In this document: positions 3,338 to 48,309 of the stretch, in pieces
How the letters are laid out: each line of letters starts with the position of its first letter
How positions within the stretch are numbered: position 1 is the first letter of the stretch
From: an uncultured Myxococcales bacterium
Lineage (GTDB): Bacteria; Myxococcota_A; UBA9042
Length of the DNA stretch: 64,000 bases
Direction of reading: 5' to 3'
NCBI GenBank assembly: GCA_903850505.1
Contig: CAINLT010000094.1
Location: forward strand, 2,016 to 66,015
The notes under the pieces: generated by a model
What the model was told of the DNA's origin: nothing
Seen by the model: the letters and a program-made list of their open reading frames with translations, nothing else
The model's database searches: none
Position numbers and translations under genes: made by a program

Positions 3338-3355
3338 GGGTCTCGTTTGCTCCGG

Positions 3356-15435: not shown

Positions 15436-15510
<75 letters not shown>

Positions 15511-15561: not shown

Positions 15562-16137
15562 CAACATTGTGCCGCAGGACTCCCATCCGCGCGCTGCAGC
15601 GACGGCGATCGGTGCACCATCGGCGACAAGTGCGCCGCGGGCGTGCGCGTGGCCGGCCAGGGGAACATCTGCGACTGCAAAATCGATGCCGACTGCGCGG
15701 TGCAGGGCAGCGCCGACCTGTGCGTGGCCAACCGCGTCTGTAGCGGCGACCAATGCGTCCTCGGAACGCCGCCAGCGCCTTGCCCGCAATCGCCGACGCG
15801 GTGCCAGGTCAACGCCTGCGATCCGGCCAGCGGTCAATGCGCGCTCGTTGCCGTCGACGACGGCTCGCCGTGCGTCGACGGCGACCCATGCACGAACGAC
15901 TTCTGCCTGCCCGCGTTCGGCTGCTACCACCCGTTCAACAGCGCGCCTGTGACCTCGTCGCTGCCCAAGTGTAAAAATCGTTCCGCGCAGTTCGCCGTCC
16001 TGTCGCATCGGCGCAATGCAGCGCCATCGCCGCGCATATTCCCCTTGCCGATGCACGCCATCCGCATTGACCAGTTGCCGCGCTATTGGCCGGCGACTAA
16101 GCTCGCGCTCGACGCGCCTTTTCGCGGATTTTTTTGA
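15562..16137 (+). pseudogene. 5'-truncated fragment of a Cys-rich CTxDxC-repeat gene abutting the tRNA
   Basis: The in-frame sequence begins right after a stop at 15559-15561. It reads CSDGDRCTIGDKCAAG...CDPASGQCALVAVDDGSPCVDGDPCTNDFCLPAFGCYHP, the same module as in the 21960, 28853 and 43067 genes. It has no signal peptide and no upstream coding continuation. The only in-frame start (GTG 15643) falls inside the repeat region. Confidence 0.5.
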
Positions 16138-21588: not shown

Positions 21589-21909
21589 ATGCATCGTCAC
21601 TTTCCGTGCACGGCGGCTCTGAGCGGCACGTCGGGCTGCCAACACACGTCATCACCTTCTGGTTGCGACGATGGCAATGTGGGCATGGCCGACGCCTGCG
21701 TCGCCGACTCGACCTGCTCACATACCAGCGCCGAGGGCGCCTGCGATGATGGAGACGCTTGTACGATCGGCGAAACCTGCGCGTTGGGCTTGTGTGGCGG
21801 CGGCACGATCGGGTTTTGCCATCCCGCGGGAGATCGCCTGGCCAAGATCCCGTCGAGTTGGGCGCGACGGTGCGTCCAAACCTTGGCGATGCATCGGCCA
21901 CTGGTTTGA
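21589..21909 (+). pseudogene. Possible second remnant, or short ORF, of the Cys-rich CTxDxC family
   Basis: It contains GCDDGNVGMADACVADSTCSHTSAEGACDDGDACTIGETCALGLCGGG. There is no signal peptide, and the consensus Cys after DGN is replaced. It sits in an otherwise non-coding 615-nt gap immediately upstream of the intact family member at 21960. Confidence 0.3.
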
Positions 21910-21959: not shown

Positions 21960-23411
21960 ATGGCGAAAGCGCGATATTTTTGGCTCTGGCTCGCGTGCGC
22001 GTTGGCGGGCGCGTGTGCGGGTGGCGTTGCCGCTGCCACGGACGCCGGCAACGCGCTCGACGTCGGTGGCTGTCCCGAACCCGCGCCTGCGAGCACGCCC
22101 GGGCTATGCCCGCAGTGGAAATGCGATGCGGCGGACGGCCTCTGGGTGCACGCTGAAGTCGAGTGCGAGGACGGAGACCTCTGCGCCTATTCTTCCTGCA
22201 GTGAAGGGACCTGCATTTGGCGATGGCAGACGGACTGCTCTGACGGCCACCCATGCACGCCGGATACCTGCGACCCAAAGAAGGGTTGCGTCCCCGACAC
22301 CCCCAAGTCGGCCGGGTGCGACGACCACGACGTCTGCACAACCGACACTTGCGACCCCACGCTGGGCTGCCGCCATGTCGATATCGGCTACGAACTCTGC
22401 AAATCCGATGACCCGTGCACGCTCGGCTTGTGCAAGCCTTCTACCGGCTGCTACTTGGCCCAGAGCGGCAAATGTCCCGCAACGTCCTCATGCAGTCCAA
22501 GCGCATGCTACGACGCCAATCCATGCACGAACGATTTCTGTGATGGCAGTCAGAATTGCGCGCACACCGACGCGACGGGCAGTTGCTACCCCATGTCGAA
22601 TCCGTGCAAGCTCGCTGCGACCTGCGGCTTGGGGACCTGCAACGTGTCGATCCCCACCTGCGACGACGGCGACGCCTGCACGAATGACAGATATATCATG
22701 GGCGCGTGCGGCTGCAGCCATGTGCCGCTGCCTGGCTGCACGCCGTCGTGCAAGGTGGACCTCGACTGTCAGGACAGCAACGCGGCGACGATGGACCTGT
22801 GCGTCCAAGGCGAGTGCATGCACTCGATTTTACCGGGCGAATGCGCCACGGACGCCTCGTGCGACGACGGCAAAGTCTGCACCGCCGACATCTGTACGCA
22901 AATCACCGGCTGGCCCACGGGTCTGTGCCAGCACGAGGCGATCCCGAAGTGCTGCGTGAGCGCTGCGTACGAGTGCCTGCCCGAAGGCGTCTATTCGCTG
23001 CAATGCGCGCTGCCGACGTGCATCGATCACGTCTGCGGCCAAGTGCCGCTGGACGATCCCACGTGCTGCCACTCGGACGCCGACTGCGGCCACGACTCGT
23101 GCAGCCCGGTTCTCTGTGAGAAGGCCATGGGCATCGGGTCTACGCCCGGAATGTACGTCTGCGTGTACAACGACGACTCCAGCTGCGAGTGCGGCATGGC
23201 CGGCGAAACGTGCGATGACAACAACTGCGCGAGCCAGGACTACTGCGTCTACGACCTCAACGCGTGCCACCACTTCTTCCCGCCGCCGGCCTGCAAGTCT
23301 GACTCGGGCTGCGATGACAAGAATCCCTGCACGACGGACGTTTGCGGCCAGAACCCAGCCTGCGGGCAGCTGGCGGAGTGCTTGCACGAGGCGGTTGCTG
23401 GCTGCAAGTGA
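21960..23411 (+). CDS. Secreted Cys-rich lipoprotein made of CTxDxC-type repeats
   Basis: I place the start at ATG 21960, giving MAKARYFWLWLACALAGACAGG (signal plus lipobox). Repeats follow: CSDGHPCTPDTCDPKKGC, CDDHDVCTTDTCDPTLGCRH, CYDANPCTNDFCDGSQNCAH, CDDGDACTNDRY and CDDKNPCTTDVCGQNPAC. The upstream part of track ORF 21759 has non-coding-like composition. Confidence 0.8.
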   Translation: MAKARYFWLWLACALAGACAGGVAAATDAGNALDVGGCPEPAPASTPGLCPQWKCDAADGLWVHAEVECEDGDLCAYSSCSEGTCIWRWQTDCSDGHPCTPDTCDPKKGCVPDTPKSAGCDDHDVCTTDTCDPTLGCRHVDIGYELCKSDDPCTLGLCKPSTGCYLAQSGKCPATSSCSPSACYDANPCTNDFCDGSQNCAHTDATGSCYPMSNPCKLAATCGLGTCNVSIPTCDDGDACTNDRYIMGACGCSHVPLPGCTPSCKVDLDCQDSNAATMDLCVQGECMHSILPGECATDASCDDGKVCTADICTQITGWPTGLCQHEAIPKCCVSAAYECLPEGVYSLQCALPTCIDHVCGQVPLDDPTCCHSDADCGHDSCSPVLCEKAMGIGSTPGMYVCVYNDDSSCECGMAGETCDDNNCASQDYCVYDLNACHHFFPPPACKSDSGCDDKNPCTTDVCGQNPACGQLAECLHEAVAGCK

Positions 23412-28668: not shown

Positions 28669-28784
28669 CGTGCGTTTTGCACGCCAATCCTCGGCCAACA
28701 TCCAACAGGCACCGCTTGCTGCCCGCAAGAATCAACCGCTCGTGACACGATTGAAACGATCGTGGCGACGATGCGTTTTTTGGT

Positions 28785-28813
28785 TTGACGCGCAGCCCGG
28801 TCATTTGTACGTT
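28785..28813 (+). promoter_or_regulatory. Possible sigma-70-like promoter of the giant-protein operon
   Basis: TTGACG at 28785-28790, a 17-nt spacer, then TACGTT at 28808-28813, about 40 nt upstream of GTG 28853. This is a pattern match only. Confidence 0.3.
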
Positions 28814-28852
28814 CGCAACGATCGGCGTGCGGACGCGAGCGAAGGGAGCACC

Positions 28853-31800
28853 GTGAAACAGAACAGCCTTTGGGGCGCCCTGCCAAGCTGGGGCGCCGCT
28901 GCCGTGATCACGCTTGTCGCCTGCTTGCCCAGACCAGCCGCAGCCGCGTGCGACGCCAGCCATCCCGCGGAAGGCTGTTGCGCCGGCGAGAAGATCCGCG
29001 GCTGCGACATCTACAACAACAACATCGACGACGACTGCGACATCTACGCCGGCTACCGGTGCGGGCACGACATTACGACGTCGAACACGGTAACTTGCAG
29101 CAGTCCGTCGATTGTCAATTACACGCCGCGCCAGAACGGCGACAACATTTGGTGCCCCGGCTTTTGCCAGTACGGCTGCTCCGGCAACAGCTGCCCGGGC
29201 ACGTGCACCAGCGATCAGACGTGCAACAACGGCACGTGCGTGGCCAGGGCGTGCGGGCATCCGGGCTACCTGCTGGCGTACTGGAATGATGGCACCAGCT
29301 ACAATCCGTCGCCTGGCCCGGCGGACACGGTGGGGCTCGTTTCGCTGGCGTCGACAACCAACCAAAGATATGGCTACGCGGTGCGCGACAACGGCAAGTT
29401 GGCGTATTGGGGCAGCGACTACGACACGCCCGGGATTTTCGGCGACGCGCACAACACCTCGATTACAAACGCGGTTCAAGTCGCGCCGGCCGCGCTCCAC
29501 GTGACGGTTTTGTTGGCGGACGGCACGCTGGTTGCCTGGAATGGTGCCTACGGCTATGCGCCGCCGGGCTATCAGGTCCAGCCGCCATCGAATTTGACGA
29601 CAGCCGGTGCCAACGTGGTCGCCATTGCAGCCGCCGGCGACGCCACCGGGGCGCTGCGCAGCGACGGCAGTATCGTGCTTTGGGGCGCCGACCTGGCGGG
29701 CAAATTCGCGGCGCTGAACGGCAAGACCGGCTTCAAGGGCATCGCGGCCGGCGGCGACCAGAACTTCATCGGCATCAAGACGGACGGCACCATCGTACAG
29801 GCGGCGGCGGACGGCACCCAGGGCAACAACACGTTCCTGCCCGCGCCTGCGGGGTTGAGCGGCGTCGTCCAGGCCGCGATTTCGACGTCGCGCGCCATTG
29901 CCCTCAAGCAGGACGGCACGGTCGTCACCTGGGGTTCGCAAGCCGTCGGCCCGCCCGGCGATTTGAAGCCGTGCCGCGCCGTCGCCGTGGGAGAATTCGC
30001 CTACGCCGACGCGTTCCTGTGCCTCCAGGTCGACGGCACGCTCCGCGTTTGGGGCAGCTACTACAACGTCAACACCGGCAACTGGACCGGCGGCTTTTCA
30101 GCCGGGACGATGGCCGGCATCAACTCGTTCAAAGGCGTCAATTTCCTCGACCCGCACGGCGTCGCCGTCATCTCGTGCACCGGCTCCTGCGGCGCGATCC
30201 CGCCCGACGGCTGCTGCGACGGCGACAAGGTCCACACGTGCAGCCCGCTCGGCGTCGACCAGGTCAGCACCTGCGCGGCCGGCACCTGCGGTTGGCAGAC
30301 GAGCGCGACCGACTACGAATGCAGCACCGCCGGCACCCCCGCGCCTGGCTTGACGCCCCTCCAGAGCTGCATTTGCGTGCCCAGCTGCAAGAACACGGAC
30401 GGCAGCGTCAAGCAGTGCGGCTCGGACGGCTGCGGCGGATCGTGCGACAAGGGCAGCTGCGACGACGGCGATCCCTGCACGATTTCCGACAAATGCAGTG
30501 GCGAAGTGTGCCTCGGCGGCGGCGCCTACAACTGCAGCGACGGCGACCTGTGCACCGACGACGCGTGCAGCAACCAAAGCGGCGCGGCCAAGTGCAGCCA
30601 CACGCCCAACACCGCGCCGTGTGACGACAGCAACGCGTGCACCAGCAACGACGTGTGCAGTTCCGGCAGCTGCGTGGGCGGCTTGGCCATCGACTGCAAC
30701 GACGGCAACGTGTGCAGCGACGACGCGTGCGACCCGGCCCAAGGATGCGTACACCTGGCTAACAGCGCGACGTGCAGCGACGGCAGCGTGTGCACGATCG
30801 GCGACGTGTGCAGCGGTTTGGCATGCCAAGCGGGCGGCGCGGCGCTCGATTGCGCCGATGGCAACGCGTGCACGGTGGACAGCTGCGATGCGACCGCCGG
30901 CTGCCGGCACGTCGACGCCGACCCGAGCACCGTCTGCGACGACAACAGCAACTGCACCGCCAGCGACCACTGCAGCGGCGGCAAGTGCGCGGGCACGTCC
31001 AACGTCAACTGCGACGACAACAACCCGTGCACCAGCGACAACTGCCTGGACCCGAACACCTGCGCGCCGCATGCCGACATCAACGAAAGCGGCGCATGCA
31101 GCGACGGTAACGCGTGCCACGTGGGCGGCAAGTGCATGGCGGGCGCGTGCAGCGGGCTCACGGCGCAGAACTGCGACGACGGCAATCCGTGCACCGACGA
31201 CGGCTGCGATCCCAAGAGCGGCTGCACGCACGGCAACAACGCGGCGGCCTGCAGCGACAACGATACCTGCACCGCGGGCGACGTGTGCGCGGGCGGATCG
31301 TGCATGTCGGGCGCGGTGGTCAATTGCGACGACAAGAACCCGTGCACCGACGACAGCTGCGACAAGGCGCTGGGCTGCCAGCACGTGGCCAACAGCCAGC
31401 CGTGCGACGACAAGAGCGTGTGCACCCAGACCGACACCTGCGCGGCTGGCCTGTGCGTGGGCGGCAACCTGAAGAGCTGCGACGACGGCCAGCTGTGCAC
31501 CAACGACACGTGCAACGCGCTTCTCGGCTGCCAGCATGCGAGCAACACCGCGCCGTGCGACGACGGCAACGCCTGCACCAAGGGCGACAAATGCTGGCAG
31601 GGCGCGTGCGTCGGCGGGGCCACCCCCAGTTGCAACGACGGCAACAGCTGCACCGACGACAGCTGCGACGCGCAAAACGGCTGCGCGTACAAGGCCAACG
31701 CGGTCGTGTGCAGCGACGGCAATCCGTGCACCTTGGGCGACTCATGCTCGCTGGGCAGCTGCAAACCAGGGGCCACTGGGCTCAACTGCGACGACGGCAA

Positions 31801-34800
31801 TCCGTGCACGACCGACGCGTGCATCGCCGGCAAGGGCTGCACCAACACCAACAACAGCCTGGCGTGCGACGACGGCCAGCTGTGCACCGTGAGCGACACC
31901 TGCGCCGGCGGCAAGTGCGTTGGCGCGGCCAAGCCCTGCAGCGACGGCAACAAGTGCACCGACGACCTGTGCGACAACGCCAAGGGCTGCTGGTTCCCGA
32001 ACAACACCGCGCCGTGCGACGACGGCAACGTCTGCACCAGCGGCGACACGTGCGCGGGCGGCAAGTGCCAGACCGGCGCGCCCAACACGGCGGCGTGCGA
32101 CGACGGCAACCTGTGCACGCTGAGTGATACTTGCAGCGGCGGCACGTGCATCGGCGGCGCGACCAAGCCGTGCGACGACGGCAATCCGTGCACGGCCGAC
32201 TACTGCTCGCCCACCGGCGCCGGACCGAGCGGCTGCTACCACGGCAGCTGGGAAAAAACCGGCGCGAGCTGCGATGACAACAACGCGTGCACGGTCAACG
32301 ACGGCTGCAAAGGCGGCGCCTGCGCTGGTGTAAGTGCGTGCTTGAGCGGCAATTGCCAGTTGGTTGGCGGCGCGCCGACGTGCCCGTGTCCGGCCGGCTA
32401 CAAGTCCATCCCGTACGACAACAGCGCGGTCAATTACTGCTGCCACCCCGACTGCAGCAACAAGAGCTGTGGCCCGGACGGCTGCGGCGGTGTGTGCCCC
32501 AACACGTGCACGGACCAGGAAAACTGCAGCTTCGACACGGATTACCACTGCATGCCCAAGACCGCCTGCTACGGCAAGGCGCCCGTCGGCGCGGGCTGCT
32601 GCGTGGGCGATACGCTGTCGCGCTGCTTTGCCCCGAAGGCGCTCTACAGCTGGGACTGCGCGGCGCAAGGCAAGCACTGCGGCTGGAACTCGGGCGACTA
32701 CCAGTACGAATGCACCACTGAAGGCGCGACCGACCCCAGCGGCGCCCACCCGTTCCTCTGCCCCGGCGCCACCTGCACGCCCAACTGCAGCGGCAAGAAC
32801 TGCGGCCCGGACGGCTGCGGCGGCACTTGCGGCACCTGCCAGAGTGAGTGGGTCTGCGACTACAGCGCGGGCAAATGCACCCACCCGTGCGACGGCGTAG
32901 TGCCTCTGCAGGGCTGCGTCGCGGGCCAATTGAACGGCGCGGACGTGGTCGAGTCCTGCCCTGACATGTACGCCAAGGCCAGCGCGGTCGGCCAGAGCGT
33001 GTGCGACCCGCAATTCCCCGCCGCGTGGGATCCCAAGTCCAAGCACATCCTGTGCAGCGCCGGCTACCCCATTCCGGCCGGCGTCACCAAGGCGTGCCCG
33101 GTCCAGGCGTGCAGCTGCGGCATCGGCGTGTTCCACCACAACTGCGGCGACAACGGCTGCGGCGGCTCTTGCGGCACGTGCAGCGGCGCGGACGTCTGCC
33201 ACGACGGCAACTGCTGCACGCCCAACTGCACCGGCAAGGTCTGCGGCGACGACGGTTGCGGCGGCTCCTGCGGCTCCTGTCCCACCGGCAAGCAGTGCAT
33301 GGCCAGCGGCAACTGCGCGGTCCCCGAGTGCGCCGACATGTACGCGCCCACGGGCCAGTGCTACGGCACGCCGGCCAACACCGCGTTCAAGAATTCCGTT
33401 TCGTACTGCACGCAAAATGCGAAGGTTTCGACCGTCTGCCCCGCCGGTTCGTCCATGTGCTTGAACGGAAGCCTCAGCACGTGCATGTTCTCCGAGAGCA
33501 GCTTCAAGTGGCTCAACGGCGGCCTGAGCTGGACGTCGTTTGCCAGCAACTCCTGCGCCGCCCGCATCAGCGAGTTCCAGTGCGCCAAGACCGCGACCGG
33601 CTCCGTCTGCGAATGCGACCCGGGATGCGTGCAGGAAGGCAACTGCTGCCCCGACTACGCGGCGGTGTGCGGGGCCAAGCACAATCCGCAGCAGTGCGGC
33701 GACGGCACGTGCGCCAGCGACCGGGGCGAAACGTGCGAGACGTGCAAGGCGGACTGCGGCGCTTGCACGGCGACGACCAAGCCGGAAGGCCCGTGGGCGA
33801 TGCCGTATCCGGCGTACATCGAGTCGCAAGGCAACCCAGATGCGCGGGCGGTGCGTGCGATTCGGCCGCTGGACGACGTTCGGCCGCAAGTGCCGCCGCT
33901 GCCGCTCGAGGGCCTGGTGGCGTACGTGCCGGGGCTGGATGCCGCGCAGACGGCGCCTGGGGCGCAGGTCAAGGTGCAAGCGGCCAAGGCGGGCGGCGCG
34001 GCGACAGCGCTCAAGACGGGCGGCGTGCAAGGCGACGCGATTTCGTTCAGCAACGCGGCGGACCAGAGCAATGGCGGCGTCGTGAGCATGATTCCGGACG
34101 TGCTGCTGCCCCATGCGGCGAGCTACGCCACGCACCAGCCGGGCGGCGTGACGATCGCGGGCTGGGTACGGACGGCGACGGGTTCGCAGGCGCACCCGAA
34201 CGTGCTCGGGGCCGCGCGCTACCCGGGCACGACCGGCGCGACCAAGTGCACCTGGAGCCGGCCGCAGGAAGCCGCCGCGCCCATCTCGTGCGGCAGCGGC
34301 AAGATCGTGGCCATCCAGGCGTATTACGGCGAGGTGAGCAAGTCCCGCTTTCCGCCCTACACGAACGGCGACCAGAGCCTGTCATCGGCGTCCTGTGACC
34401 TGCTGCCGCAGCTGGAGCCGACCCACAAGTGCGAGGACGCGGCGGTGCAGGCGCTGGCGGAGAAGGCGTGCCTCGGCAAGGCGTCGTGCTGGGTCGATCC
34501 GTGGCCGGAAGCGCTGGATCCGTGCTCGAGCGCGCCGCATAAGCCGATGAAGTCGACGCTGCTGCTGCGCGCGGTGTGCGATGCCGCGACGCCGAATGCG
34601 GGCGCGACGCTGGCGGTGGAAGCGGCAAGCGATGGCGGCCGGCTGCGCTTTGACGCCCCGGGGCTGCCGGCGCTGGTCAGCCAGGGCGAGTTCCCGCAGC
34701 ACGCCTGGACGCACGTGGCGCTCGTGTTTTCGCCGCACAAGGGCTCGCAGGACGGCACGGTGACGCTGTTTGTCAACGGCAGTCCGCAAGCGCAGCTGGA

Positions 34801-37800
34801 AGGCTACGGCTTTCCGCGCTTTTACCAGTGGGATTGGGGTGTTGGCCACGTCGCGGGCGCGGAGGCCGGCTGGGACGGTTTCCTGGATCCGGGCGTCAGC
34901 ACGCAGACGCCGAACCTGACGGGCCATTTCGACCTGGACAACGCGGTGCTGTACGACCGGCCGCTGCAAACGGCGCAGCTGGTGAGCCTCGTCAGCCAGC
35001 CAAACGTGGGGACGGTGCGGGTGTGGCCGGCGTTGGATGCGCCGCGCGTGGCCAAGCTGGGCCTGTGGGCAAATGGGGGCACGCCGGCGACGACGGCCGT
35101 CAAGCTGGATCAGCTGGTGGATCCGACGACGGGCGCCGGGCTTGCCGCGGACTTCCAGGCGCTCACCGTGCCAGGCGGCCAGTTCCAGGCGCCCGCGGAA
35201 GGCAGCGACTTGACCGGCTTGCAGAATTTCGCCGTGGGTTCGTGGATCCGCGCCAGCAGCCTCAGCGCCGGCAGCACCTTGTGGCAGTTCACCCAGGGCT
35301 CGACCACGCGGTTGAAGCTCAGCGTCGACACCACCTGCAGCGGCAGCGGCATCAAGGCGGAAACGGCCAGCGGCACGGTGACTTCCACTACGTGCGCGCA
35401 CGCGCTGCAGGCCAACGCGTGGGCGTTCGTCGCGTACGTCCAGTCCGGCAGCACTGGCAGCGTGTTCATCGACGGCGCGAAGCTCGGCTCCGCCACGGTC
35501 GGCGCACCGCTCTTTGACTCCAGCGGCACGGGCGCGCGCAAGTTCAGCACCGGCGCCGGGGTGGACCTCGGCTGGAGCGCCTTGTACAGCCGGGCCTTGA
35601 CGGCGGACGAACTGACCGCGCAGGCAAGCCAGGGACCCGCCGTGTGGCTCGACGGCTCGTACTTCCAGCCCACGGGCGCAGCAACCGCCAAGCTCCGCGA
35701 TTTCGCCCTCTTCCGCAACGTCGGCACCAGCGCGGTCACCGGCGTCGCGCGGGCCTACGCGAACGGGTCCCAGGTCACCGGCAGCAGCCAGCTCAGCGCG
35801 GCGACCGTCATCGTGCCACGCACCGGCCGCTTCCACGCCGGCGTCGTCAACGGCACTGTCAGTTCGGGCACGACCTCCTACACGTGGGTCGGCACGGTCT
35901 CGGTGGACCCCAAGATCGACAAGACCTACCCGCTCTTCCGGCGCGGCGACGGGACGTACACCGACGACCGGGTGACGCTCGTCTGCACCAAGCTCACGTT
36001 GCAGGACGGCACGGGCGTCGGCTGCCACGTCGACGGCGCGATCCAGTTCACGTACAGCGGGACCGCGCTGCATACGCACGTGTCGTCGGAGACGTTCTCG
36101 CTGGTTTCGGGCGTCCCGCAACCGGTGCGGCTGGCGGTGGCGCTCACTGGCGACACGTTCGCGGCGGCGCTGTCCGTCGCGCCGTCGTCAAATGCCGCGG
36201 CGTTCCAGCTCGGTTTGGGCACGGACACGTTGACGGACCACGCGTCGCACCTGCTGCACATGACCAACCTGGGGCCGCAGACGGAGGCGATGGCGCCGCT
36301 GCTCTTGACCACGCCGTGGGATGGCATCCTGCTCGACGGCGCCACGAGCGACGCTTGGCTGGACATGCGGCTGTACGCGCGGGCGCTGGGCGACGCGGAA
36401 CTGCGGGAAGTGGCGGCGGTCGGCTGTGCGGCGGACGCATGCGACGATCGGCTGCGGACGTGCACGCTGGCCGGACTCGGCGCCGGCGTAAGCTTCATGG
36501 CCCCGGCCGGCCTCGCCACCTGCACCGGCTGCCAGAGCACGGCGTTTGAAGTCAACGCCACGTGCCTGCCCAAGGGCGGCTTCCGGGAAGCCTGCTCGTA
36601 CGCCGACGACTGCGTAAGCGGCCTGTGCGTGCACGGTCACTGCCGCTCCACCAGCGCCGATGCGGACTGCGCCGCCGGCTGCCTGAAGTTGGGCCACGCC
36701 TGCCAGGCCATGACGAGCGGCGGCTACGAATGCGGCCCCGCCTGCCTGACCGACTTCACCGCCGGCGTGTACGCGGCCGACCCGATCTCCGGCGAACAGG
36801 TCCTCGCGTGCGCGTGGCATCCGGCCAAGGACACCCTGGATCGCTGCAGCGCGCACGAGGACTGCGGCTCCGGCGTGTGCTCCGACCAGACGTCCGCCGC
36901 GTACAACGTCACCAACACGGACACCAAGCTCACGGCGCCCGTTTATTCGAACAGCGGCGGCTACGGCGTGAGCACCGGCACCACCGGCCCGCTCGAAACC
37001 TGCACCAGCGCGGACCAGTGCGCCAAGGTCAGCCACACGTCCATCACGGAAAAAGTGTGCGCCGCCGAGACCAACGCCGCATGCGCCGCGCAGCTGATGC
37101 AATCGCGCGTCGTGCACACGACATCGTGGGACGGCACGAGCAAGGACGGCTACGTGTGCGAGGGCTGCCTGAGCGACACCTACCAGGGCGACGCTGGCGA
37201 TCCCAACAACGGCAAACCGCTCTACGTCCAGGGCTGGTCGCTGCTGGCGCCGGACGCGTGCCGCAAGGTGTACGAAAACTACTTCGCGCTTTTGAACAAC
37301 GGCGTGGTCACGGTCGGGTCGAGCAGCTACCACAGCAATTCCGACGGCTGGGAGGATTCGACCCGGCTGGCGAACATGGGCGACATTTTGGCCCATCCGC
37401 CGGAGCTTTCGCGGCTGCGCAAGCTGGTGCTGAACGATGGCAATCCGACCAGCGCGGTGACGCCGGCGATTCTGTCGCAGCTGGAGCAGGCGGGCGTTGG
37501 GCGGCTGCTCCTGGACCCGAACCTCAAGCCGTGGGCGTACGACTACGGGTTTTATCCCACGGCCTTCAACGGCTATTTGGAAACCTCCCTGCGGCCGGCG
37601 CAGAACCGGCTCGGCGACTGCGCGCGCAAATCCTACGATTTCACCAACTACGAAGGCTGGCCCGGCGGCCACGTGACCAAGACGCCGTACTACGACCGCG
37701 ACGTGAACCGGCCGGTGTGCCTGGAAAACAAGTTCCCCAACGGCGCGACCTGCCCGCCCGCCAGCACGGTCAAGACGTACACGCGAGCCAACTCCGGGCT

Positions 37801-39007
37801 TTTCTGCGCCAGCGGCTTCTGCGCGGTGGACGGCAAGGACTGCGAGGAAGGCTACGCGGTCTATGAGGAAACCCACGGCGGTCAGCGCAACGACGGCAAG
37901 TCCGGCGGCGGCGGCAATGATCTCGGCCAGATCGCGCTCGTGCAGGACAACGGCTCGACGTTCCGCTTCGACAAGGTCGACGAAACGACCGTCACGCTGG
38001 AGTCGGGCACGACCGACCACCGGCACATTTACCTGGAAGGCCACAGCAAGAACAGCGTCAACATCTTTGGCTGGGTGGCGGACGTGCTGGACCTGCAAGT
38101 GTCGGCGATTGAAGTGCCGGGCGCGGCGGACGACGGCGACAAGGCCCAGGTGGCGCAGGAATTCCTGATTTGCGGCGTGCAGCCCCCGAGCCTGCCCGCG
38201 CTGCCCAAGTCTTCGTGCGGCGCGGCGCAGTTCGAGAACGGCGAGTACAAGGCGCCGACGTGCCACATGACCAAGGAGCCAATTGGCGTGTCGGTTTCGC
38301 ACACGGCCAAGAAGCACAAGAACGGCACGACGAAGGAGTCCGAGTCGGGCATCGAAGTCACCGGCGGCGACCTGGTGCCGACGATCACTTTCCACGTGCC
38401 GCTGCCGCTGCAGGAATGTCCGGAGGAGGAAGGCTTCCACGCCGTGTTCGGCCGCGTGTGCTTCTCCAAGCAGACGACGGTCGGGCCGGTGCCGTTCAAG
38501 GTGGAGGCGGAAATCAAGCCGGAGGCCACGGTCGAGCTGGGCGTAGAGCTGGATTCGGAGACGTTCGAGCCGGCCGCGAAGATCAAGCCCGCGGTCGCCC
38601 TGACGCTGGAAGTCAAAGGCGGCGTCGGCGGTGAAATCGGGCCGGTGGAGATCTTCGCGGGCTTGAAGGGCGTCATCACCATCATCGAAGCCGCGCTGCC
38701 GGTGACGTTCGGTTTTGAATTTGAGCAGGTGACCGATGCAAGCAACAATGAAATCACGGATCTGTGGATCGTCTCCAAGGTCGTCAAGGTCAACTTCGAG
38801 CTGACATTCCTCAAGCTGGCGCTCAGCGTGTTCTTCGAAGTCGGCGTCGGGCCGTTCAAGGTGGAGCTGGAATACAGCTTCTTCGAGTTCGAGGGTATCG
38901 AGCTGTCGTGGGACCTCGGCGACCTGGCGGCGGAGCAGTACAAAGTGGACTTCCAGTGGGATCCCTATTCGACGTCGACCACCTCGGGTCACGGAGGTAC
39001 GCCATGA
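28853..39007 (+). CDS. Giant (3384 aa) secreted Cys-rich mosaic protein. Modules: RCC1-like propeller, CTxDxC repeat array, CGxDGCGGxCGxC modules, somatomedin-B-like module, SUEL-lectin-like module, LamG-like regions, Cys-free C-terminal domain.
   Basis: I place the start at GTG 28853, with GGGAG 5 nt upstream, giving a signal peptide (M)KQNSLWGALPSWGAAAVITLVACLPRPAAAA. Propeller blades read GKLAYWGSDY, GTLVAWNGAYG, GSIVLWGADLAG, GTVVTWGSQAVG, GTLRVWGSYY. The remaining modules are detailed under findings. It is a single uninterrupted frame of 10155 nt. Confidence 0.9.
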   Translation: MKQNSLWGALPSWGAAAVITLVACLPRPAAAACDASHPAEGCCAGEKIRGCDIYNNNIDDDCDIYAGYRCGHDITTSNTVTCSSPSIVNYTPRQNGDNIWCPGFCQYGCSGNSCPGTCTSDQTCNNGTCVARACGHPGYLLAYWNDGTSYNPSPGPADTVGLVSLASTTNQRYGYAVRDNGKLAYWGSDYDTPGIFGDAHNTSITNAVQVAPAALHVTVLLADGTLVAWNGAYGYAPPGYQVQPPSNLTTAGANVVAIAAAGDATGALRSDGSIVLWGADLAGKFAALNGKTGFKGIAAGGDQNFIGIKTDGTIVQAAADGTQGNNTFLPAPAGLSGVVQAAISTSRAIALKQDGTVVTWGSQAVGPPGDLKPCRAVAVGEFAYADAFLCLQVDGTLRVWGSYYNVNTGNWTGGFSAGTMAGINSFKGVNFLDPHGVAVISCTGSCGAIPPDGCCDGDKVHTCSPLGVDQVSTCAAGTCGWQTSATDYECSTAGTPAPGLTPLQSCICVPSCKNTDGSVKQCGSDGCGGSCDKGSCDDGDPCTISDKCSGEVCLGGGAYNCSDGDLCTDDACSNQSGAAKCSHTPNTAPCDDSNACTSNDVCSSGSCVGGLAIDCNDGNVCSDDACDPAQGCVHLANSATCSDGSVCTIGDVCSGLACQAGGAALDCADGNACTVDSCDATAGCRHVDADPSTVCDDNSNCTASDHCSGGKCAGTSNVNCDDNNPCTSDNCLDPNTCAPHADINESGACSDGNACHVGGKCMAGACSGLTAQNCDDGNPCTDDGCDPKSGCTHGNNAAACSDNDTCTAGDVCAGGSCMSGAVVNCDDKNPCTDDSCDKALGCQHVANSQPCDDKSVCTQTDTCAAGLCVGGNLKSCDDGQLCTNDTCNALLGCQHASNTAPCDDGNACTKGDKCWQGACVGGATPSCNDGNSCTDDSCDAQNGCAYKANAVVCSDGNPCTLGDSCSLGSCKPGATGLNCDDGNPCTTDACIAGKGCTNTNNSLACDDGQLCTVSDTCAGGKCVGAAKPCSDGNKCTDDLCDNAKGCWFPNNTAPCDDGNVCTSGDTCAGGKCQTGAPNTAACDDGNLCTLSDTCSGGTCIGGATKPCDDGNPCTADYCSPTGAGPSGCYHGSWEKTGASCDDNNACTVNDGCKGGACAGVSACLSGNCQLVGGAPTCPCPAGYKSIPYDNSAVNYCCHPDCSNKSCGPDGCGGVCPNTCTDQENCSFDTDYHCMPKTACYGKAPVGAGCCVGDTLSRCFAPKALYSWDCAAQGKHCGWNSGDYQYECTTEGATDPSGAHPFLCPGATCTPNCSGKNCGPDGCGGTCGTCQSEWVCDYSAGKCTHPCDGVVPLQGCVAGQLNGADVVESCPDMYAKASAVGQSVCDPQFPAAWDPKSKHILCSAGYPIPAGVTKACPVQACSCGIGVFHHNCGDNGCGGSCGTCSGADVCHDGNCCTPNCTGKVCGDDGCGGSCGSCPTGKQCMASGNCAVPECADMYAPTGQCYGTPANTAFKNSVSYCTQNAKVSTVCPAGSSMCLNGSLSTCMFSESSFKWLNGGLSWTSFASNSCAARISEFQCAKTATGSVCECDPGCVQEGNCCPDYAAVCGAKHNPQQCGDGTCASDRGETCETCKADCGACTATTKPEGPWAMPYPAYIESQGNPDARAVRAIRPLDDVRPQVPPLPLEGLVAYVPGLDAAQTAPGAQVKVQAAKAGGAATALKTGGVQGDAISFSNAADQSNGGVVSMIPDVLLPHAASYATHQPGGVTIAGWVRTATGSQAHPNVLGAARYPGTTGATKCTWSRPQEAAAPISCGSGKIVAIQAYYGEVSKSRFPPYTNGDQSLSSASCDLLPQLEPTHKCEDAAVQALAEKACLGKASCWVDPWPEALDPCSSAPHKPMKSTLLLRAVCDAATPNAGATLAVEAASDGGRLRFDAPGLPALVSQGEFPQHAWTHVALVFSPHKGSQDGTVTLFVNGSPQAQLEGYGFPRFYQWDWGVGHVAGAEAGWDGFLDPGVSTQTPNLTGHFDLDNAVLYDRPLQTAQLVSLVSQPNVGTVRVWPALDAPRVAKLGLWANGGTPATTAVKLDQLVDPTTGAGLAADFQALTVPGGQFQAPAEGSDLTGLQNFAVGSWIRASSLSAGSTLWQFTQGSTTRLKLSVDTTCSGSGIKAETASGTVTSTTCAHALQANAWAFVAYVQSGSTGSVFIDGAKLGSATVGAPLFDSSGTGARKFSTGAGVDLGWSALYSRALTADELTAQASQGPAVWLDGSYFQPTGAATAKLRDFALFRNVGTSAVTGVARAYANGSQVTGSSQLSAATVIVPRTGRFHAGVVNGTVSSGTTSYTWVGTVSVDPKIDKTYPLFRRGDGTYTDDRVTLVCTKLTLQDGTGVGCHVDGAIQFTYSGTALHTHVSSETFSLVSGVPQPVRLAVALTGDTFAAALSVAPSSNAAAFQLGLGTDTLTDHASHLLHMTNLGPQTEAMAPLLLTTPWDGILLDGATSDAWLDMRLYARALGDAELREVAAVGCAADACDDRLRTCTLAGLGAGVSFMAPAGLATCTGCQSTAFEVNATCLPKGGFREACSYADDCVSGLCVHGHCRSTSADADCAAGCLKLGHACQAMTSGGYECGPACLTDFTAGVYAADPISGEQVLACAWHPAKDTLDRCSAHEDCGSGVCSDQTSAAYNVTNTDTKLTAPVYSNSGGYGVSTGTTGPLETCTSADQCAKVSHTSITEKVCAAETNAACAAQLMQSRVVHTTSWDGTSKDGYVCEGCLSDTYQGDAGDPNNGKPLYVQGWSLLAPDACRKVYENYFALLNNGVVTVGSSSYHSNSDGWEDSTRLANMGDILAHPPELSRLRKLVLNDGNPTSAVTPAILSQLEQAGVGRLLLDPNLKPWAYDYGFYPTAFNGYLETSLRPAQNRLGDCARKSYDFTNYEGWPGGHVTKTPYYDRDVNRPVCLENKFPNGATCPPASTVKTYTRANSGLFCASGFCAVDGKDCEEGYAVYEETHGGQRNDGKSGGGGNDLGQIALVQDNGSTFRFDKVDETTVTLESGTTDHRHIYLEGHSKNSVNIFGWVADVLDLQVSAIEVPGAADDGDKAQVAQEFLICGVQPPSLPALPKSSCGAAQFENGEYKAPTCHMTKEPIGVSVSHTAKKHKNGTTKESESGIEVTGGDLVPTITFHVPLPLQECPEEEGFHAVFGRVCFSKQTTVGPVPFKVEAEIKPEATVELGVELDSETFEPAAKIKPAVALTLEVKGGVGGEIGPVEIFAGLKGVITIIEAALPVTFGFEFEQVTDASNNEITDLWIVSKVVKVNFELTFLKLALSVFFEVGVGPFKVELEYSFFEFEGIELSWDLGDLAAEQYKVDFQWDPYSTSTTSGHGGTP
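30458..32340 (+). repeat. Array of about 16 double Cys-repeat units (about 38-39 aa, 115 nt period) inside the giant gene
   Basis: Two half-units alternate. One is C.DGN.CT.D.C....GC.H, for example CDDGNPCTDDGCDPKSGCTH. The other is C.D...CT.GD.C..G.C.GG, for example CSDNDTCTAGDVCAGGSCMSG. They repeat from CDDGDPCTISDKC to CDDNNACTVNDGCKGGAC. Confidence 0.85.
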
Positions 39008-40935
39008 AGCGGTGGCAAATAGCGACGGCGGCGCTCGTTGTAACCGGCGTCCTGGGTGCGGTGTGGTACTGGCAGAACGCCGCCGCGCGCACGGAAGTGA
39101 CGGTCGACGCCGCGGCGAAAGTGCCCCACCCAGCGGCGGCGACGGCTGCGGGCAAGGCTCAGCCTGACGCTCAGGGCACGGGCGGTGATGCGTACGCCCT
39201 CGACTACAGCTTTGAGATGACGGCGCCGTTTGCCAACGCTGCGGATCAGACGCTGCACCTGCACGTGACGGGCACGCTGGAGCTGGGCGCCGCGCAGCCC
39301 GACGCGGACGGGGCGTGGCAGCCGGCGCGTCTGGTGGCCGGGCATGTCGAACAGGACGCCGTGGCCGCACGCGTGCTGGACTGGTCGCTGCCGGGCGTGG
39401 AGGCGGAGCTGGCGCGGCCGTTTGCGTTCCACCTGCAAAAAGACGGCCGGGTCGATGCGGTGCGCTGCGATCCGACTCTGGCTTTTGCCACCCGCTCGAC
39501 ACTGGCGGGCGCCGCTTGGGCCATCCAACACGTGCATCCAGCCACCGCGGCGGCGACGTGGCAGCTGGAGGAGCGCGACGCCAATGGCACCTATCAGGCG
39601 AAGTACCGTCAGGCGGCGGCGGGCGTGGTCGAAAAAACCTGGCAAATTGGCCAGAACGGCGACGATCCGGCGCGGCTGGCGCAGGTCTCGAACGGCAGCG
39701 CGCGGTATGCCGTGAACGCGCATGGCCTGGAAACCATGACGTGGGCGCTCTCGGGCACGGCCGCGACCGGTTCGCTGGATCCGGCCAAGTACAAGCCGTT
39801 TGCCCTCAAGATTGGCCTCACGCGCACGGGCGCGGTGGACGCAGCGTGGGCCGCGACGATCCGCCCGGAGGCGCTGCAGCCGTTCACGTCCGCGAGCGCG
39901 AAAGTCCGGCAGCGTCTGGAAGCGCCGACGCGGCCGCTGGATACGGTCCTGGCCGACGTGGCGCAGAAGGCCGAGCACCTGGATCCGTCCGGTCACGTGA
40001 CGCTGCGGGACGAATTGACGCGCGCGGTGCGCCAGGATGCGGATGGTCCGGCGAAGTTGGCGGCGCAGTTGCGGCAGGATGCTGCACCGGGCGAGGCGCG
40101 CAGGCTCGCGGTCGAGGCGCTGATTGGCGCGCGGACGGAACCGGCGCAGGAGATGGCGGCGCAGCTGATGGCGGACGAGACGCTCGCGCAGCCCGTGCGG
40201 CAGGAACTGCTGGCGGCGGCGGCGTTCATGTCGAGCCCGACGGTCGCGTTTGTCACGTCGCTGGAGAAGCTCGCGTACAACCCGCGCGCGTCGACGGTCA
40301 GCGCGGATGCGGCCACGACGCTGGGGGCTGCCGTCGCCTTTCTGGCCGAAAAGAACCCGCAGGCGGCCCGACCGGTCCTGGAGCGCCTGATCGCCAACGC
40401 TGGACCGGTGCTCGGGCGTCCGACCGCCAAACACGCGCAGCCCTTGGCCGTGCGCATGGCCTGGCTGGCAGGCCTCGGCAATACCGGCGACGCGGCGACG
40501 CTGTCGCTGATTCTGCAGGCGCTGGGCGACAAGGACGAGTTCGTGCGCGGCGCGGCGGCGCTGGCTTTGCGGCGACAGGACCCCGCAGCGGTGGCGACGC
40601 CGCTCATCGATCGAATGGCGATTGAAACGTCGGCCCACACGCGGGCGCGGCTGGTCGACGCGGCGCGCTTCCTGGGCCCGGACAAGCTGGGCGAGCTGGT
40701 GGAAAAGGCGCTGCGCTACGACCGCAGCGAGCACGTGCGGCTGGCGGCGGCCTACGCGATGACAGTGTGGTCGACTGCGGCGCCGGGGCTGCGCAAGACG
40801 TTGGTGGACGCGCTCAAGCACGAGAAGTCGCCCAAGGTCGCGGCGGCGCTGCAGCATGACATCAACCAGGGCCAGGTCGATCCGGGGGTCGCGGTCAAAT
40901 CCGTGCACATGGGCGGAGCGGGGGCGACACCATGA
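39004..40935 (+). CDS. N-terminally membrane-anchored protein with C-terminal HEAT-like repeats
   Basis: ATG 39004 overlaps the stop of the giant gene (ATGA). The TM anchor is MKRWQIATAALVVTGVLGAVWYW. HEAT-like repeats read LGNTGDAATLSLILQALGDKDEFVRGAAALALRR and ALRYDRSEHVRLAAAYAM. The part of track ORF 38764 upstream of 39004 lies out of frame inside the giant gene. Confidence 0.8.
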   Translation: MKRWQIATAALVVTGVLGAVWYWQNAAARTEVTVDAAAKVPHPAAATAAGKAQPDAQGTGGDAYALDYSFEMTAPFANAADQTLHLHVTGTLELGAAQPDADGAWQPARLVAGHVEQDAVAARVLDWSLPGVEAELARPFAFHLQKDGRVDAVRCDPTLAFATRSTLAGAAWAIQHVHPATAAATWQLEERDANGTYQAKYRQAAAGVVEKTWQIGQNGDDPARLAQVSNGSARYAVNAHGLETMTWALSGTAATGSLDPAKYKPFALKIGLTRTGAVDAAWAATIRPEALQPFTSASAKVRQRLEAPTRPLDTVLADVAQKAEHLDPSGHVTLRDELTRAVRQDADGPAKLAAQLRQDAAPGEARRLAVEALIGARTEPAQEMAAQLMADETLAQPVRQELLAAAAFMSSPTVAFVTSLEKLAYNPRASTVSADAATTLGAAVAFLAEKNPQAARPVLERLIANAGPVLGRPTAKHAQPLAVRMAWLAGLGNTGDAATLSLILQALGDKDEFVRGAAALALRRQDPAAVATPLIDRMAIETSAHTRARLVDAARFLGPDKLGELVEKALRYDRSEHVRLAAAYAMTVWSTAAPGLRKTLVDALKHEKSPKVAAALQHDINQGQVDPGVAVKSVHMGGAGATP

Positions 40936-43082
40936 TGCGCTTTGTATGGGCGTTGGCGATTCTGTGCGCGGCATGCGGCCACACGGCGAGCACTTCGTGC
41001 GGCGCGGGCGCCATCGAGGTGGACGGCCAGTGCGTGCCCGACCCGAACGCGCTGGCGTGTGGCGCGGGCACGGTCGCGGATGGCGGCGTGTGCTATCCGG
41101 CAAACGGCGGTCCAGACGCAACTGCGGACGAAGTGGGCGGGCTCGACGCGTCGGACTCCGGTGAAGTGGCAGACGCCTTGGTGGGCGACATTCCGTGCCA
41201 GCCCAACTGCGCCGGAAAGCAATGCGGCGACGACGGCTGTGGCGGGACTTGCGGGGCATGCGCATCGGCCGCGGCACCCATCTGCAACTCGATCGGCGTG
41301 TGCGTCGCTTCCTGCACTGCGGAATGCACCGGCAAGACCTGCGGCGACGACGGCTGCGGCGGCGTGTGCGGCATGTGCGGCACGGACAGCGGCTGCAGCA
41401 GCATTGGCCAGTGCGTACCTAAAGCCTGGACCTGCAACGCGCTCTATTTTGGCGCCGGCGACGCGTGCGACTGTGCGTGCGGCGGCTATGACCCCGACTG
41501 CAAGGACCCCGAGGCGCCGCTGGCCGGCTGCGGCTCGCTGCAAAAATGCGACGCGGCAGGCAAATGCGTCGACAAGAACCCGGCCGGCTGGACCTGCGCG
41601 CCCACGAGCTACGACGCGCTGGACGGCTGCGACTGCGGCTGCGGCGTGCCCGATCCGGACTGCGCGGTGGCAACTTTGCCCGTCATTGGCTGCAAGACCG
41701 GCGAAGCCTGCAGCACCGCAGGCGCATGCGTGGCGTGCGTTCCCGCGTGCAATGGCAAGAATTGTGGCCCCGACGGCTGCGGCGGCTCGTGCGGTTCCTG
41801 CGGCGAGGGCGCCGTCTGCGACGCGGGCACGTGCGCCGACCCCTGCAAGCCCACGCCCATCGCCTGCAAATACGCGACCTGCGGCGACGACGGCTGCGGC
41901 GGATCCTGTGGCACATGCGCGGCCGGCAAGACGTGCGACGGCGGCACGTGTGTTGTCGTCGGCCTGCCGGAAGCGCCGACCTCGTGCGTGGGCCACTGCG
42001 GCAGCACCGCGCTTTCCGGCTGCTCCTGCGCGCCAAAATGCGTCGCCAACGGCACCTGCTGCGACGACTACAGCGCTGTGTGCACCTGCAAGCCGGACTG
42101 CACCGGCAAGGCGTGCGGCCCCAACGGCTGCGGCGGCACGTGCGGCACCTGCGGCGGCAACGCGCCTTGGTGCGACGCGACCGGCCAGTGCAGCGCGACG
42201 TGCACCAAACAGTGCACCGGCAAAGCGTGTGGCGACGACGGCTGCGGCGGCACGTGCGGCCAGTGCGGCGCGGACAGCGTGTGCTCGACCTACAGCCAAT
42301 GCGTGCCCACCGCGTGGCAATGCCCCATCCCGTACTTCGCCGACGGCATCGCGTGCGACTGCGGCTGCGGCGCGCCCGATCCCGACTGCGCCATTGCCAA
42401 GGTCCTGACGTTTGGCTGCCCCACCTCGACCACCGCATGCGATGCCACGACCGGCTTGTGCAAATCCACGTTCTGTAAGTCCGACACGACGTGCGGCAGT
42501 CAAGCGTGCGTGGGCCTGTATGCCACCGGCGGCGGCGGGTACGGCGGAGTCTGTGGCGCGCAAACCAGCGGCGGCAAGAACATGGGCCAACTCTGCGCCT
42601 CCGCGGGCGAATGCAAAAGCAGCGTGTGCTTGGGCGGCCTGTGCCGGCAATTCTGCCAGACCGACGGCGAGTGCCCCGGCCAGTTGAAGTGCCTCGCGCT
42701 GCCCGTCACCGGCCCGGCGAACGCGGTCGTGGGCTTGACCGGAGTGTGCGAGGCTGTGAATGGCTCCGGCGGCGCGTGCACCAAGCAGGCGGACTGCACC
42801 GCGTTTGGCGAATCGTGCCAAGCCTTCGCCGACGCCAAGACCTTCCAGCCGCGCTACCTGTGTGCCATCGGCAGCAAGACGTCCGGGGCCAAGTGCGGCC
42901 TGCAAGCGTGCGGCGCGGGCCAGTTCTGCGTCGCGGATAGCGCGGGCAAGCACTGCGGCGCCGCGTGTCCAGGCGGGAGCAGCGACTGCACGAGCGGAAC
43001 CTGCGGCACGACGACGTTCAACAACGCCGGGACGAACGCGCCCGCCGACGATCCGAAGGTGCCTGTATGCGTGCAGCCGTGA
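40932..43082 (+). CDS. Cys-rich secreted lipoprotein with CGxDGCGGxCGxC, W.C...DxCDCGCG..DPDC and somatomedin-B-like modules
   Basis: ATG 40932 overlaps the preceding stop (ATGA). The lipobox is MMRFVWALAILCAACGH. There are six CxGKxCG(D/P)(D/N)GCGGxCGxC modules and three DxCDC(G/A)CG..DPDC modules. One 8-Cys module reads SCVGHCGSTALSGCSCAPKCVANGTCCDDYSAVC. Confidence 0.85.
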   Translation: MMRFVWALAILCAACGHTASTSCGAGAIEVDGQCVPDPNALACGAGTVADGGVCYPANGGPDATADEVGGLDASDSGEVADALVGDIPCQPNCAGKQCGDDGCGGTCGACASAAAPICNSIGVCVASCTAECTGKTCGDDGCGGVCGMCGTDSGCSSIGQCVPKAWTCNALYFGAGDACDCACGGYDPDCKDPEAPLAGCGSLQKCDAAGKCVDKNPAGWTCAPTSYDALDGCDCGCGVPDPDCAVATLPVIGCKTGEACSTAGACVACVPACNGKNCGPDGCGGSCGSCGEGAVCDAGTCADPCKPTPIACKYATCGDDGCGGSCGTCAAGKTCDGGTCVVVGLPEAPTSCVGHCGSTALSGCSCAPKCVANGTCCDDYSAVCTCKPDCTGKACGPNGCGGTCGTCGGNAPWCDATGQCSATCTKQCTGKACGDDGCGGTCGQCGADSVCSTYSQCVPTAWQCPIPYFADGIACDCGCGAPDPDCAIAKVLTFGCPTSTTACDATTGLCKSTFCKSDTTCGSQACVGLYATGGGGYGGVCGAQTSGGKNMGQLCASAGECKSSVCLGGLCRQFCQTDGECPGQLKCLALPVTGPANAVVGLTGVCEAVNGSGGACTKQADCTAFGESCQAFADAKTFQPRYLCAIGSKTSGAKCGLQACGAGQFCVADSAGKHCGAACPGGSSDCTSGTCGTTTFNNAGTNAPADDPKVPVCVQP

Positions 43083-47968: not shown

Positions 47969-48309
47969 CAGAGGGTTCAGAACTCCAGCCACCAGTACCT
48001 CCGCAGTTGCCACCCGACTCGCACGCCTCTGGAGGTGCGCTGGGGCCACGTGCCGAACTTTCCGCACGCATCCAAGCTCCGCGGAATTCCAGACTTTCCC
48101 GAACCGCGAGGCCTATCCAGCATGCCGCGTCCAACGCGCCCGTCAAGGCCCGGGATGGCGTGAGATTGCCGTGTTTGCGCGCAAAGTTCGCAGTTGCGTT
48201 GGCGTTTGCCTAGCCCCGACGAGGATTTGCCGGGTGCGCTTGCACAAGCGGAACATGAACTTTACGCTGTCCAAGGGGCTGCTTGCTCCCGTCAGCGAGC
48301 GACGCCTCC

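Follow-up and report, generated by a model that had tools for sequence, protein, structure and literature searches.

We describe an array of cysteine-rich repeats, at nucleotides 30458–32340 of a 64,000-nucleotide stretch of DNA from the metagenome-assembled genome (MAG) of an uncultured bacterium (the whole of this stretch is referred to below as the window), that probably forms a disulfide-stapled stalk of fixed length in a surface lipoprotein encoded by a conserved four-gene operon, as judged from its sequence and from a structure model. The array is an ordinary new member of a family that is already in the databases, namely Dicty_CTDC, and its resemblance to the Dictyostelium repeat is not in itself what makes it of interest; the interest lies in the scale on which the module is used and in the context in which it occurs.

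An array of alternating four-cysteine modules

The array and the gene that contains it are as follows.

28853–39007, + strand: gene for a giant cysteine-rich lipoprotein, P0001, defined by an open reading frame (ORF) with a signal peptide and the lipobox L-V-A-C
30458–32340, + strand: array of 24 four-cysteine modules of two kinds, A (Dicty_CTDC, 11 units) and B (13 units), in alternation, defined by motifs and by Pfam family PF00526

The + strand frame is open from 28670 to 39007 (3445 codons), and the array occupies exactly residues 597–1224 when these are numbered from 28670. The GTG at 28853 is the likely start of the gene because the sequence AAGGGAG is found 5 nucleotides upstream of it. 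When this GTG is used the product has 3384 amino acids, and its translation begins MKQNSLWGALPSWGAAAVITLVAC, a signal peptide that ends in the lipobox. Cysteine accounts for 7.2% of the complete protein and for 15.4% of the array region.

The A units follow the pattern C-x-[DN]-x3-C-[TS]-x-D-x-C-x4-8-C-x-H (n = 11) and start at nucleotides 30533, 30695, 30851, 31010, 31172, 31325, 31478, 31631, 31787, 31937 and 32171. Interleaved with them are the B units, which follow the pattern C-x5-C-T-x-[GS]-D-x-C-x2-G-x-C (n = 13). The resulting double unit has a period of 51–52 residues; the distance from one A unit to the next is 50–54 residues, with a single gap of 78 residues, and B units lie between. 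In an alignment of 57 in-register windows of the genome the consensus was CDDGNPCTxDxCxxxxGCxH followed by CxDGxACTxGDxCxxGxC; all of the cysteines were invariant, D3, D10 and T8 were invariant or nearly so, and an acidic DDGN turn recurred. This consensus reproduces both of the alternating patterns that had been given in a preliminary description of this DNA. A strict regular expression for the A unit had 22 matches in the window, 932 in the genome and a single one in the reversed genome, and chance is therefore excluded as a source of the motif. At the DNA level, Tandem Repeats Finder did not detect a 153-nucleotide period in the array, the copies being too diverged.

Profile matches to the amoebal repeat

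The Pfam model of Dicty_CTDC, PF00526, has 24 positions and a gathering cut-off of 27 bits. Against this model P0001 scored 77.2 bits (E 7.9e-22), with 11 stretches, one per A unit, that spanned model positions 1–22 up to 2–24 of the 24. The preliminary description had likened the array to the Dictyostelium CTDC repeat, and the profile check bears this out. Single A units of the genome reached up to 47 bits, and single 24-residue units taken from the genome and from samples of the phylum reached 35–52 bits over model positions 1–24. The B unit also has four cysteines, with the same first gap as the A unit and with later gaps of x5/x4 where the A unit has x4/x5, and it keeps the conserved D and T; B units alone nevertheless scored 11–16 bits or nothing, so PF00526 discriminates beyond the cysteine framework. 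These scores place the bacterial array within the Dicty_CTDC family of Pfam. Moreover, because single units score up to 47–52 bits on a model of 24 positions, homology of the bacterial A units with the amoebal units is likely.

B units also matched PF23416 (DUF7107, a cysteine-rich model of 48 positions) at 16–17 bits (E 0.006–0.014), under the cut-off of 24.6. These sub-threshold matches, for example at residues 651–675 and 861–885, may point to a distant link for the double unit. Disulfide-rich repeats of exported proteins in the same phylum also make up the NCBIfam family TIGR02232, the "Myxococcus cysteine-rich repeat". This is a different family from the array: NCBIfam returned no family for P0001 at E ≤ 1, TIGR02232 included.

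Among the proteins of Dictyostelia the domain is characteristic of those of the matrix, EcmA, EcmB and PsiA being examples (PMC4931340), and dictyostelid Dicty_CTDC matrix proteins have been described in two papers (PMC4931340, PMC4406040). Proteins with the domain number 6–15 per genome in Dictyostelia and Physarum, and there are none in Acanthamoeba (PMC4931340). The dictyostelid matrix proteins EcmA, EcmB and PsiA have in common with P0001 the unit of ~24 residues and four cysteines, the CTxDxC core, export, which for P0001 is predicted from sequence, and the occurrence in long arrays. The units of EcmA and EcmB have been described as head-to-tail tandems of 24 residues. Unlike the dictyostelid repeat, however, the A unit here alternates with the divergent B unit at a period of 51 residues, the arrays form part of multidomain proteins with a lipid anchor, and the genes number 139 in a single genome, compared with the 6–15 of an amoebal genome.

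Conservation of the array and of its operon

A search with the C-terminal 1,046 residues of P0001 found six relatives among 5.8e9 proteins, all of them giants (2,547–3,902 residues). Five of the six carry both PF00526 and Laminin_G_3; the most distant, P0007, has Laminin_G_3 and RCC1_2, and PF00526 is not on record for it. The closest relative, P0002, which is 58% identical to P0001, has the same 11 A units at near-identical spacing, with one gap differing by 1 residue. Between P0001 and P0002, orthologous double units are 73% identical whereas paralogous ones are 45% identical, and the units are therefore individually old and have been maintained without concerted evolution. Together, the shared unit number and spacing in P0002 and the lack of a 153-nucleotide period indicate that the array is old and that its length is conserved. 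Recent slippage or an assembly artefact was rejected as an origin of the array, on the grounds of the Tandem Repeats Finder result and of the one-to-one conservation of orthologous units.

The gene for P0001 heads an operon of four genes (28853–46054 of the window), the stops and starts of which overlap. The order, which is kept in two independent metagenome contigs (L081, 1224–18536, and L082, 10001–28726), is that of the giant CTDC protein, a HEAT membrane protein, a cysteine-rich protein and a CTDC-LamG lipoprotein. The last three are listed here.

39004–40935, + strand: operon gene 2, HEAT-repeat protein that has 1 cysteine and a membrane helix near its N-terminus (HEAT_2, PF13646)
40932–43082, + strand: operon gene 3, exported protein of 716 residues, 15% cysteine, with CGxDGCGGxCGxC modules and a Somatomedin B-like motif (from the translation)
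43067–46054, + strand: operon gene 4, lipoprotein of 995 residues with the lipobox LAAC and a Laminin_G_3 end domain (PF00526, PF13385)

A scan of genome contigs with the HEAT protein yielded no relative. Operon gene 4 has four A units (nucleotides 44150, 44303, 44456 and 44609) that alternate with B units, and it scored 66.9 bits against PF00526 (E 1.3e-18).

Domains of the giant protein

A Pfam search of P0001 returned Dicty_CTDC and Laminin_G_3. The regions outside the array that could be delimited are these.

29243–30190, + strand: RCC1-like β-propeller repeats, N-terminal to the array (RCC1_2, PF13540, 27.5 bits, cut-off 22)
33575–33676, + strand: Somatomedin B domain, residues ~1636–1669 of P0001 (PF01033, 33.9 bits, cut-off 23.1, E 4e-8)
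35189–35614, + strand: Laminin_G_3, a concanavalin A-like lectin domain, the better of two stretches (PF13385, 52.9 bits)
37817–39004, + strand: conserved C-terminal region, residues 3050–3445 of P0001, defined by identity among relatives

The RCC1-like region also matched WD40_RLD at E 6e-11, under the cut-off of that family, and PF13540 is on record in the orthologues P0002 and P0006. A further segment of P0001 resembles the SUEL lectin domain at a sub-threshold score. The C-terminal ~400 residues are the best-conserved part of the protein family, being 75% identical to those of P0002 and 50–55% identical to those of P0003–P0006. The C-terminal 396 residues had no Pfam match, and their AlphaFold2 model was weak (predicted local distance difference test, pLDDT, 46), with very long β strands in the last ~190 residues, a part that may serve for anchoring or may act on membranes.

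Somatomedin B is a domain better known in extracellular proteins of animals, and motifs resembling CxCxxxCxxxGxCCxDYxxxC occur also in operon genes 3 and 4. Further cysteine modules that match no Pfam family recur in regions 28950–29240, 30200–30457 and 32400–33570 and in operon gene 3. Among them are GCCxGD...CGW...YEC, with three copies in P0001, and CxPxCxGKxCGxDGCGGxCGxC, of which there are at least four copies in P0001 and many in operon genes 3 and 4.

Predicted fold and capacity for oxidative folding

An AlphaFold2 model of residues 835–987, which cover three double units, was built from an alignment of paralogues and had a mean pLDDT of 95.8 and a predicted template-modelling score of 0.65, the latter value fitting an extended shape. 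The model consists of β-hairpins only, with 6 + 6 residues per A unit and 3 + 3 residues per B unit. Neither among solved structures (PDB) nor among viral ones (BFVD) did Foldseek find a match to the model at E ≤ 0.001. The best match, which is not significant, was to the cysteine-rich region of the heavy chain of the Gal/GalNAc lectin of Entamoeba histolytica (PDB 9gjb_H; E 0.038, probability 0.44, TM 0.19); that protein is likewise a disulfide-rich extended surface stalk, from an amoebozoan, although there is no sequence match between the two. When the sequence of the array was compared with all PDB chains nothing was found at E ≤ 1, and in a 2021 survey Dicty_CTDC was among the repeat families without a known structure (PMC8078820).

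Exactly eight cysteines are present in 449 of 454 double units, and fewer than 15 substitutions were seen in cysteine columns of hidden Markov model alignments. Disulfide partners were also sought through the co-loss of cysteines, and none could be assigned by this means because, with 449 of 454 units intact, loss of a cysteine is too rare. The genome encodes a VKOR-DsbA fusion (contig C541) and has 23 matches to the DSBA domain, including ORFs with 3–4 tandem DsbA domains; contigs C541, C136, C296, C488 and C222 carry members of this set, and one DsbA-like gene lies within the window, at 8794–9756. The density of DSBA matches is 3.2 per Mb in the family of the host, compared with 1.5 per Mb in the rest of the phylum, and across 47 genomes it correlates with the load of CTDC modules (Spearman rho 0.63).

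Abundance and distribution of the module

The A motif is present in 139 stop-to-stop ORFs of the genome, which add up to 412 kb (7.4% of the DNA) with 12,625 cysteine codons. With 887 B-like motifs added to the A motifs, the genome has ~1,800 modules. A-to-A spacings of 50–54 residues are the commonest (421 cases, mode 51); a minority (87) are of 23–27 residues, which means that plain A-A tandems exist too. All 150 scored matches to PF00526 in the genome lay above the cut-off, and none was found in 14 control genomes. A lipobox-like signal, as recognised by a simple regular expression, is present in 75 of the 120 CTDC ORFs that have an intact N-terminus.

In a sample of the phylum, 188 of 301 genomes (62%) had a match, among them all sampled genomes of the class of the host. 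The number of first-look candidates per genome was ~900–3,500 in the family of the window, ~80–2,500 elsewhere in the class and, for phylum members outside the class, under 170 in most cases, genomes of 8–11 Mb included. Two other phyla were chosen via RpoB loci: that of a MAG labelled Bacteriovorax had matches in 0 of 121 genomes, and that of Geobacter in 4 of 121. When a profile built from three double units was searched against 1.84 billion representatives of clusters at 50% identity, 25,464 of these matched with E ≤ 1e-3, and 6,675 did so with E ≤ 1e-30. From these sequence searches, the module is used very commonly in the predicted surface lipoproteins of uncultured myxobacteria-like bacteria. 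The literature that we found on Dicty_CTDC in bacteria consisted of amoebal papers and a single mention in a figure legend.

The window belongs to contig C94 of a MAG of 5.56 Mb in 549 contigs, which is 89.6% complete with an estimated contamination of 0.9%; G+C content is 66–71% throughout. A fragment of RpoB shares 89% identity with that of a single MAG, labelled "Myxococcota bacterium" (isolate Deming_bin.407), and no more than 63% with any other record, Polyangia, Myxococcales, Binatia and Geobacter being about equally distant. Because of these identities the host is placed in a deep-branching uncultured lineage that has no cultured relative, its Myxococcota label being taken from the database label of the sister MAG. 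Eukaryotic contamination as a source of the module was rejected given the G+C content, the bacterial lipoboxes and the spread of the module over more than 100 contigs, the contamination estimate of the MAG being so low. The preliminary description had also framed the module as a matrix repeat common to two multicellular lineages that live in soil and aggregate. That framing is not supported, the module not being peculiar to such organisms: the host is an uncultured MAG with no RpoB closer than 63% beyond one other MAG; within the phylum the module peaks in an uncultured class and has few copies in the genomes of 8–11 Mb; it occurs here and there in the phylum of Geobacter too; and its clusters number 25,464.

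Discussion

The findings described here can be assembled into the following proposal, which we consider likely. The canonical 24-residue A unit is paired with a divergent sister, the B unit, to give a double module of 51 residues and eight cysteines. After Sec-dependent export and lipidation, the cysteines would presumably be oxidised in the periplasm by the enlarged set of DsbA and VKOR proteins, whereupon each unit would fold into a small disulfide-stapled β-hairpin and the 24 units, stacked on one another, would make up a stiff rod whose length is fixed. Such a rod would then serve as a stalk or spacer in a giant lipid-anchored protein that also has an RCC1-like propeller, Somatomedin B, LamG-type and conserved C-terminal domains, and that is encoded together with the three partner proteins of the conserved operon. 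More broadly, the uncultured Myxococcota family to which the host belongs probably uses the module as a general extracellular scaffold, given the 139 genes, most of the judgeable ones of which appear to encode lipoproteins.

Membership of the family by profile, the anatomy of the array, its conserved number of units, the abundance and distribution of the module and a confident hairpin model are shown by the present data, whereas export, disulfide formation, stiffness of the rod, exposure at the surface and the role as a spacer are all features that we infer here, and several points weigh against the stalk reading as a whole. Localisation at the outer surface, as opposed to the periplasm, is assumed; the stalk role is predicted from sequence and model, and the disulfide pairing, for which C1-C3 and C2-C4 within a unit are expected, and the geometry of the rod are presumed. 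The alignment behind that model was made of paralogous repeats of one genome, so that confidence in the packing between units could be inflated. The count of lipoproteins depends on a home-made regular expression. Finally, Ca2+ or a ligand might instead be bound through the conserved D, N and T residues, and a purely passive spacer is not proven.

The stalk reading agrees with what is said of bacterial teneurin-like proteins in a preprint, in which Dicty_CTDC is named among their N-terminal display modules and the teneurin-like proteins of Myxococcota are described as lipoproteins with a signal peptide of type SPII (bioRxiv 10.1101/2025.11.11.687626). The teneurin-like proteins of Myxococcota resemble P0001 in being SPII lipoproteins with Dicty_CTDC in the part presumed to effect display at the surface. 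Unlike them, P0001 lacks the superfold of YD-shell, NHL and FN-plug in Pfam searches, and its cargo consists instead of LamG and Somatomedin B domains, an RCC1-like region and a C-terminal domain of unassigned fold.

A different function for the array would follow if it were an active element, either adhesive, Ca2+-binding or cross-linking, and if the 139 proteins together formed an extracellular coat; in the cross-linking version the proteins might be joined by networks of intermolecular disulfides like those of the Dictyostelium slime sheath. The near-invariance of D3, T8 and D10, the recurrent acidic DDGN turn, the 7.4% share of the genome that is taken up by CTDC genes and the fact that the amoebal homologues are matrix proteins all speak for such a role. 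However, the number of cysteines per double unit is even and invariant, which favours closed intramolecular pairs, the distinct end domains and the lipid anchors suit display better than polymerisation, and no Ca2+-binding family of Pfam matched the array, so that we think an active role of this kind quite improbable. Even harder to sustain, and in our view very improbable indeed, is the notion of a matrix module tied to aggregative multicellularity that social amoebae and fruiting myxobacteria came to have in common, whether by convergence or by an ancient transfer. Among the phyla sampled, bacterial carriers of the module are found mainly in Myxococcota (188 of 301 genomes, compared with 0 of 121 and 4 of 121), and in Dictyostelia the domain does mark the matrix proteins EcmA, EcmB and PsiA (PMC4931340). 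Nonetheless, the genomes richest in the module come from an uncultured class, are of 3–8 Mb and have no cultured relative, copies are few in the large genomes of the phylum, and the module resides here in lipid-anchored multidomain proteins rather than in secreted matrix polymers that consist of repeats only.

The resemblance to the amoebal repeat could in principle be convergent: a four-cysteine hairpin of 24 residues may have few solutions, and the bacterial A unit and the amoebal repeat, though unrelated, would then satisfy the same Pfam model. That the unit is very short, that a solved structure was found for neither side, and that the bacterial arrays are mostly double A-B units of 51 residues, not 24-residue tandems, are in keeping with this. 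Single units, on the other hand, score 35–52 bits, which is far above what the cysteine framework confers (at most 16 bits for B units with their four cysteines, D and T), and genuine A-A tandems of 23–27 residues are present in the genome; convergence therefore seems unlikely to us. We tentatively raise the possibility, which is somewhat doubtful, that the so-called Dictyostelium repeat is bacterial in origin and was taken up for the slime sheath by bacterivorous amoebozoans from prey such as Myxococcota. In size and in diversity the bacterial pool (25,464 clusters, 62% of the sampled Myxococcota genomes, ~900–3,500 first-look candidates per genome in the family of the host) exceeds the amoebal one by orders of magnitude. 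On the same tentative view, the uncultured family would in parallel have built an extracellular repertoire of eukaryote-like appearance, in which CTDC rods are combined with Somatomedin B, LamG, SUEL-like and RCC1-like domains, and would have devoted 7% of its genome to it along with a doubled complement of DsbA. If there was a transfer, the direction from bacteria to amoebae is the simpler one because there are tens of thousands of bacterial clusters and only 6–15 amoebal proteins per genome. The imbalance between the two repertoires makes the origin of the dictyostelid matrix repeat a concrete question.

A matrix repeat that bears the name of a eukaryote is one of the extracellular modules that an uncultured bacterial lineage appears to use most heavily, yet it is nearly absent from the open literature. 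For annotation, giant genes of this kind are better read as surface lipoproteins with Dicty_CTDC rods than as eukaryotic contamination or as a sign of a tie to multicellularity. With 12,625 cysteine codons in 139 ORFs, and DsbA at twice the density of the phylum, the lineage also offers a natural case of high-throughput oxidative folding in a Gram-negative envelope.

Other loci in the window

Seven places besides the array had been proposed in the preliminary description to carry the same module. One of these, 28853, is the start of the array's own gene. The proposal holds for 43067 (operon gene 4), 21960 and 15562, which pass PF00526; at 21589 and 56907 only degenerate or single A-like units are found. 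The region 40932–43082 (operon gene 3) has no CTDC unit and only other cysteine modules, and the qualification "weakly" with which it had been listed was fair, since just CGxDGCGGxCGxC modules occur there. The loci outside the operon are as follows.

15562–16137, + strand: short open frame by tRNA-Gly with one A unit at nucleotide 15871 (PF00526, 27.3 bits, barely above the cut-off of 27)
21589–21909, just upstream of the gene at 21960: frame of 106 codons with a degenerate A unit, CDDGNVGMADAC, the second cysteine of which is lost, and an intact B unit
21960–23411, + strand: separate exported CTDC protein with five A-type motifs (PF00526, 43.4 bits, E 3e-11, 3 stretches)
56907–57509, − strand: cysteine-rich ORF of 200 residues with a single A-like unit, CDDGHSCTQDFC, at nucleotide 57317 (regular expression)

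The A motifs of 21960–23411 are at nucleotides 22236, 22317, 22506, 22860 and 23310, and the frame at 21589–21909 may be a decayed gene fragment. In 15562–16137, a B-like unit without the fourth cysteine lies upstream of the A unit, and there is no start codon until 15643; the open frame directly follows a tRNA-Gly(CCC) at 15436–15510. This locus is probably what is left of the 3′ part of a CTDC gene that was truncated at a breakpoint linked to the tRNA. The ORF at 56907–57509 matched no Pfam family at E ≤ 0.01.

Some further genes of the window were also noted. On the − strand, 9775–15300 is a very long UvrA-like ORF with several ABC ATPase, UvrA_inter and UvrA DNA-binding segments, apparently a paralogue of UvrA that has undergone duplication or fusion; at the upstream end of this mechanically delimited ORF, ~600 codons overlap the tRNA and are probably non-coding. 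Two Hanks-type Ser/Thr kinases with a C-terminal response-regulator receiver domain are encoded at 52993–54483 (+ strand) and 55312–57108 (− strand), and a CHASE2 histidine kinase at 50921–52939 adjoins these kinase-receiver genes. An outer-membrane protein of the OmpA family, encoded at 48283–49737, has thrombospondin type 3 (TSP_3) repeats between its barrel and its OmpA domain.

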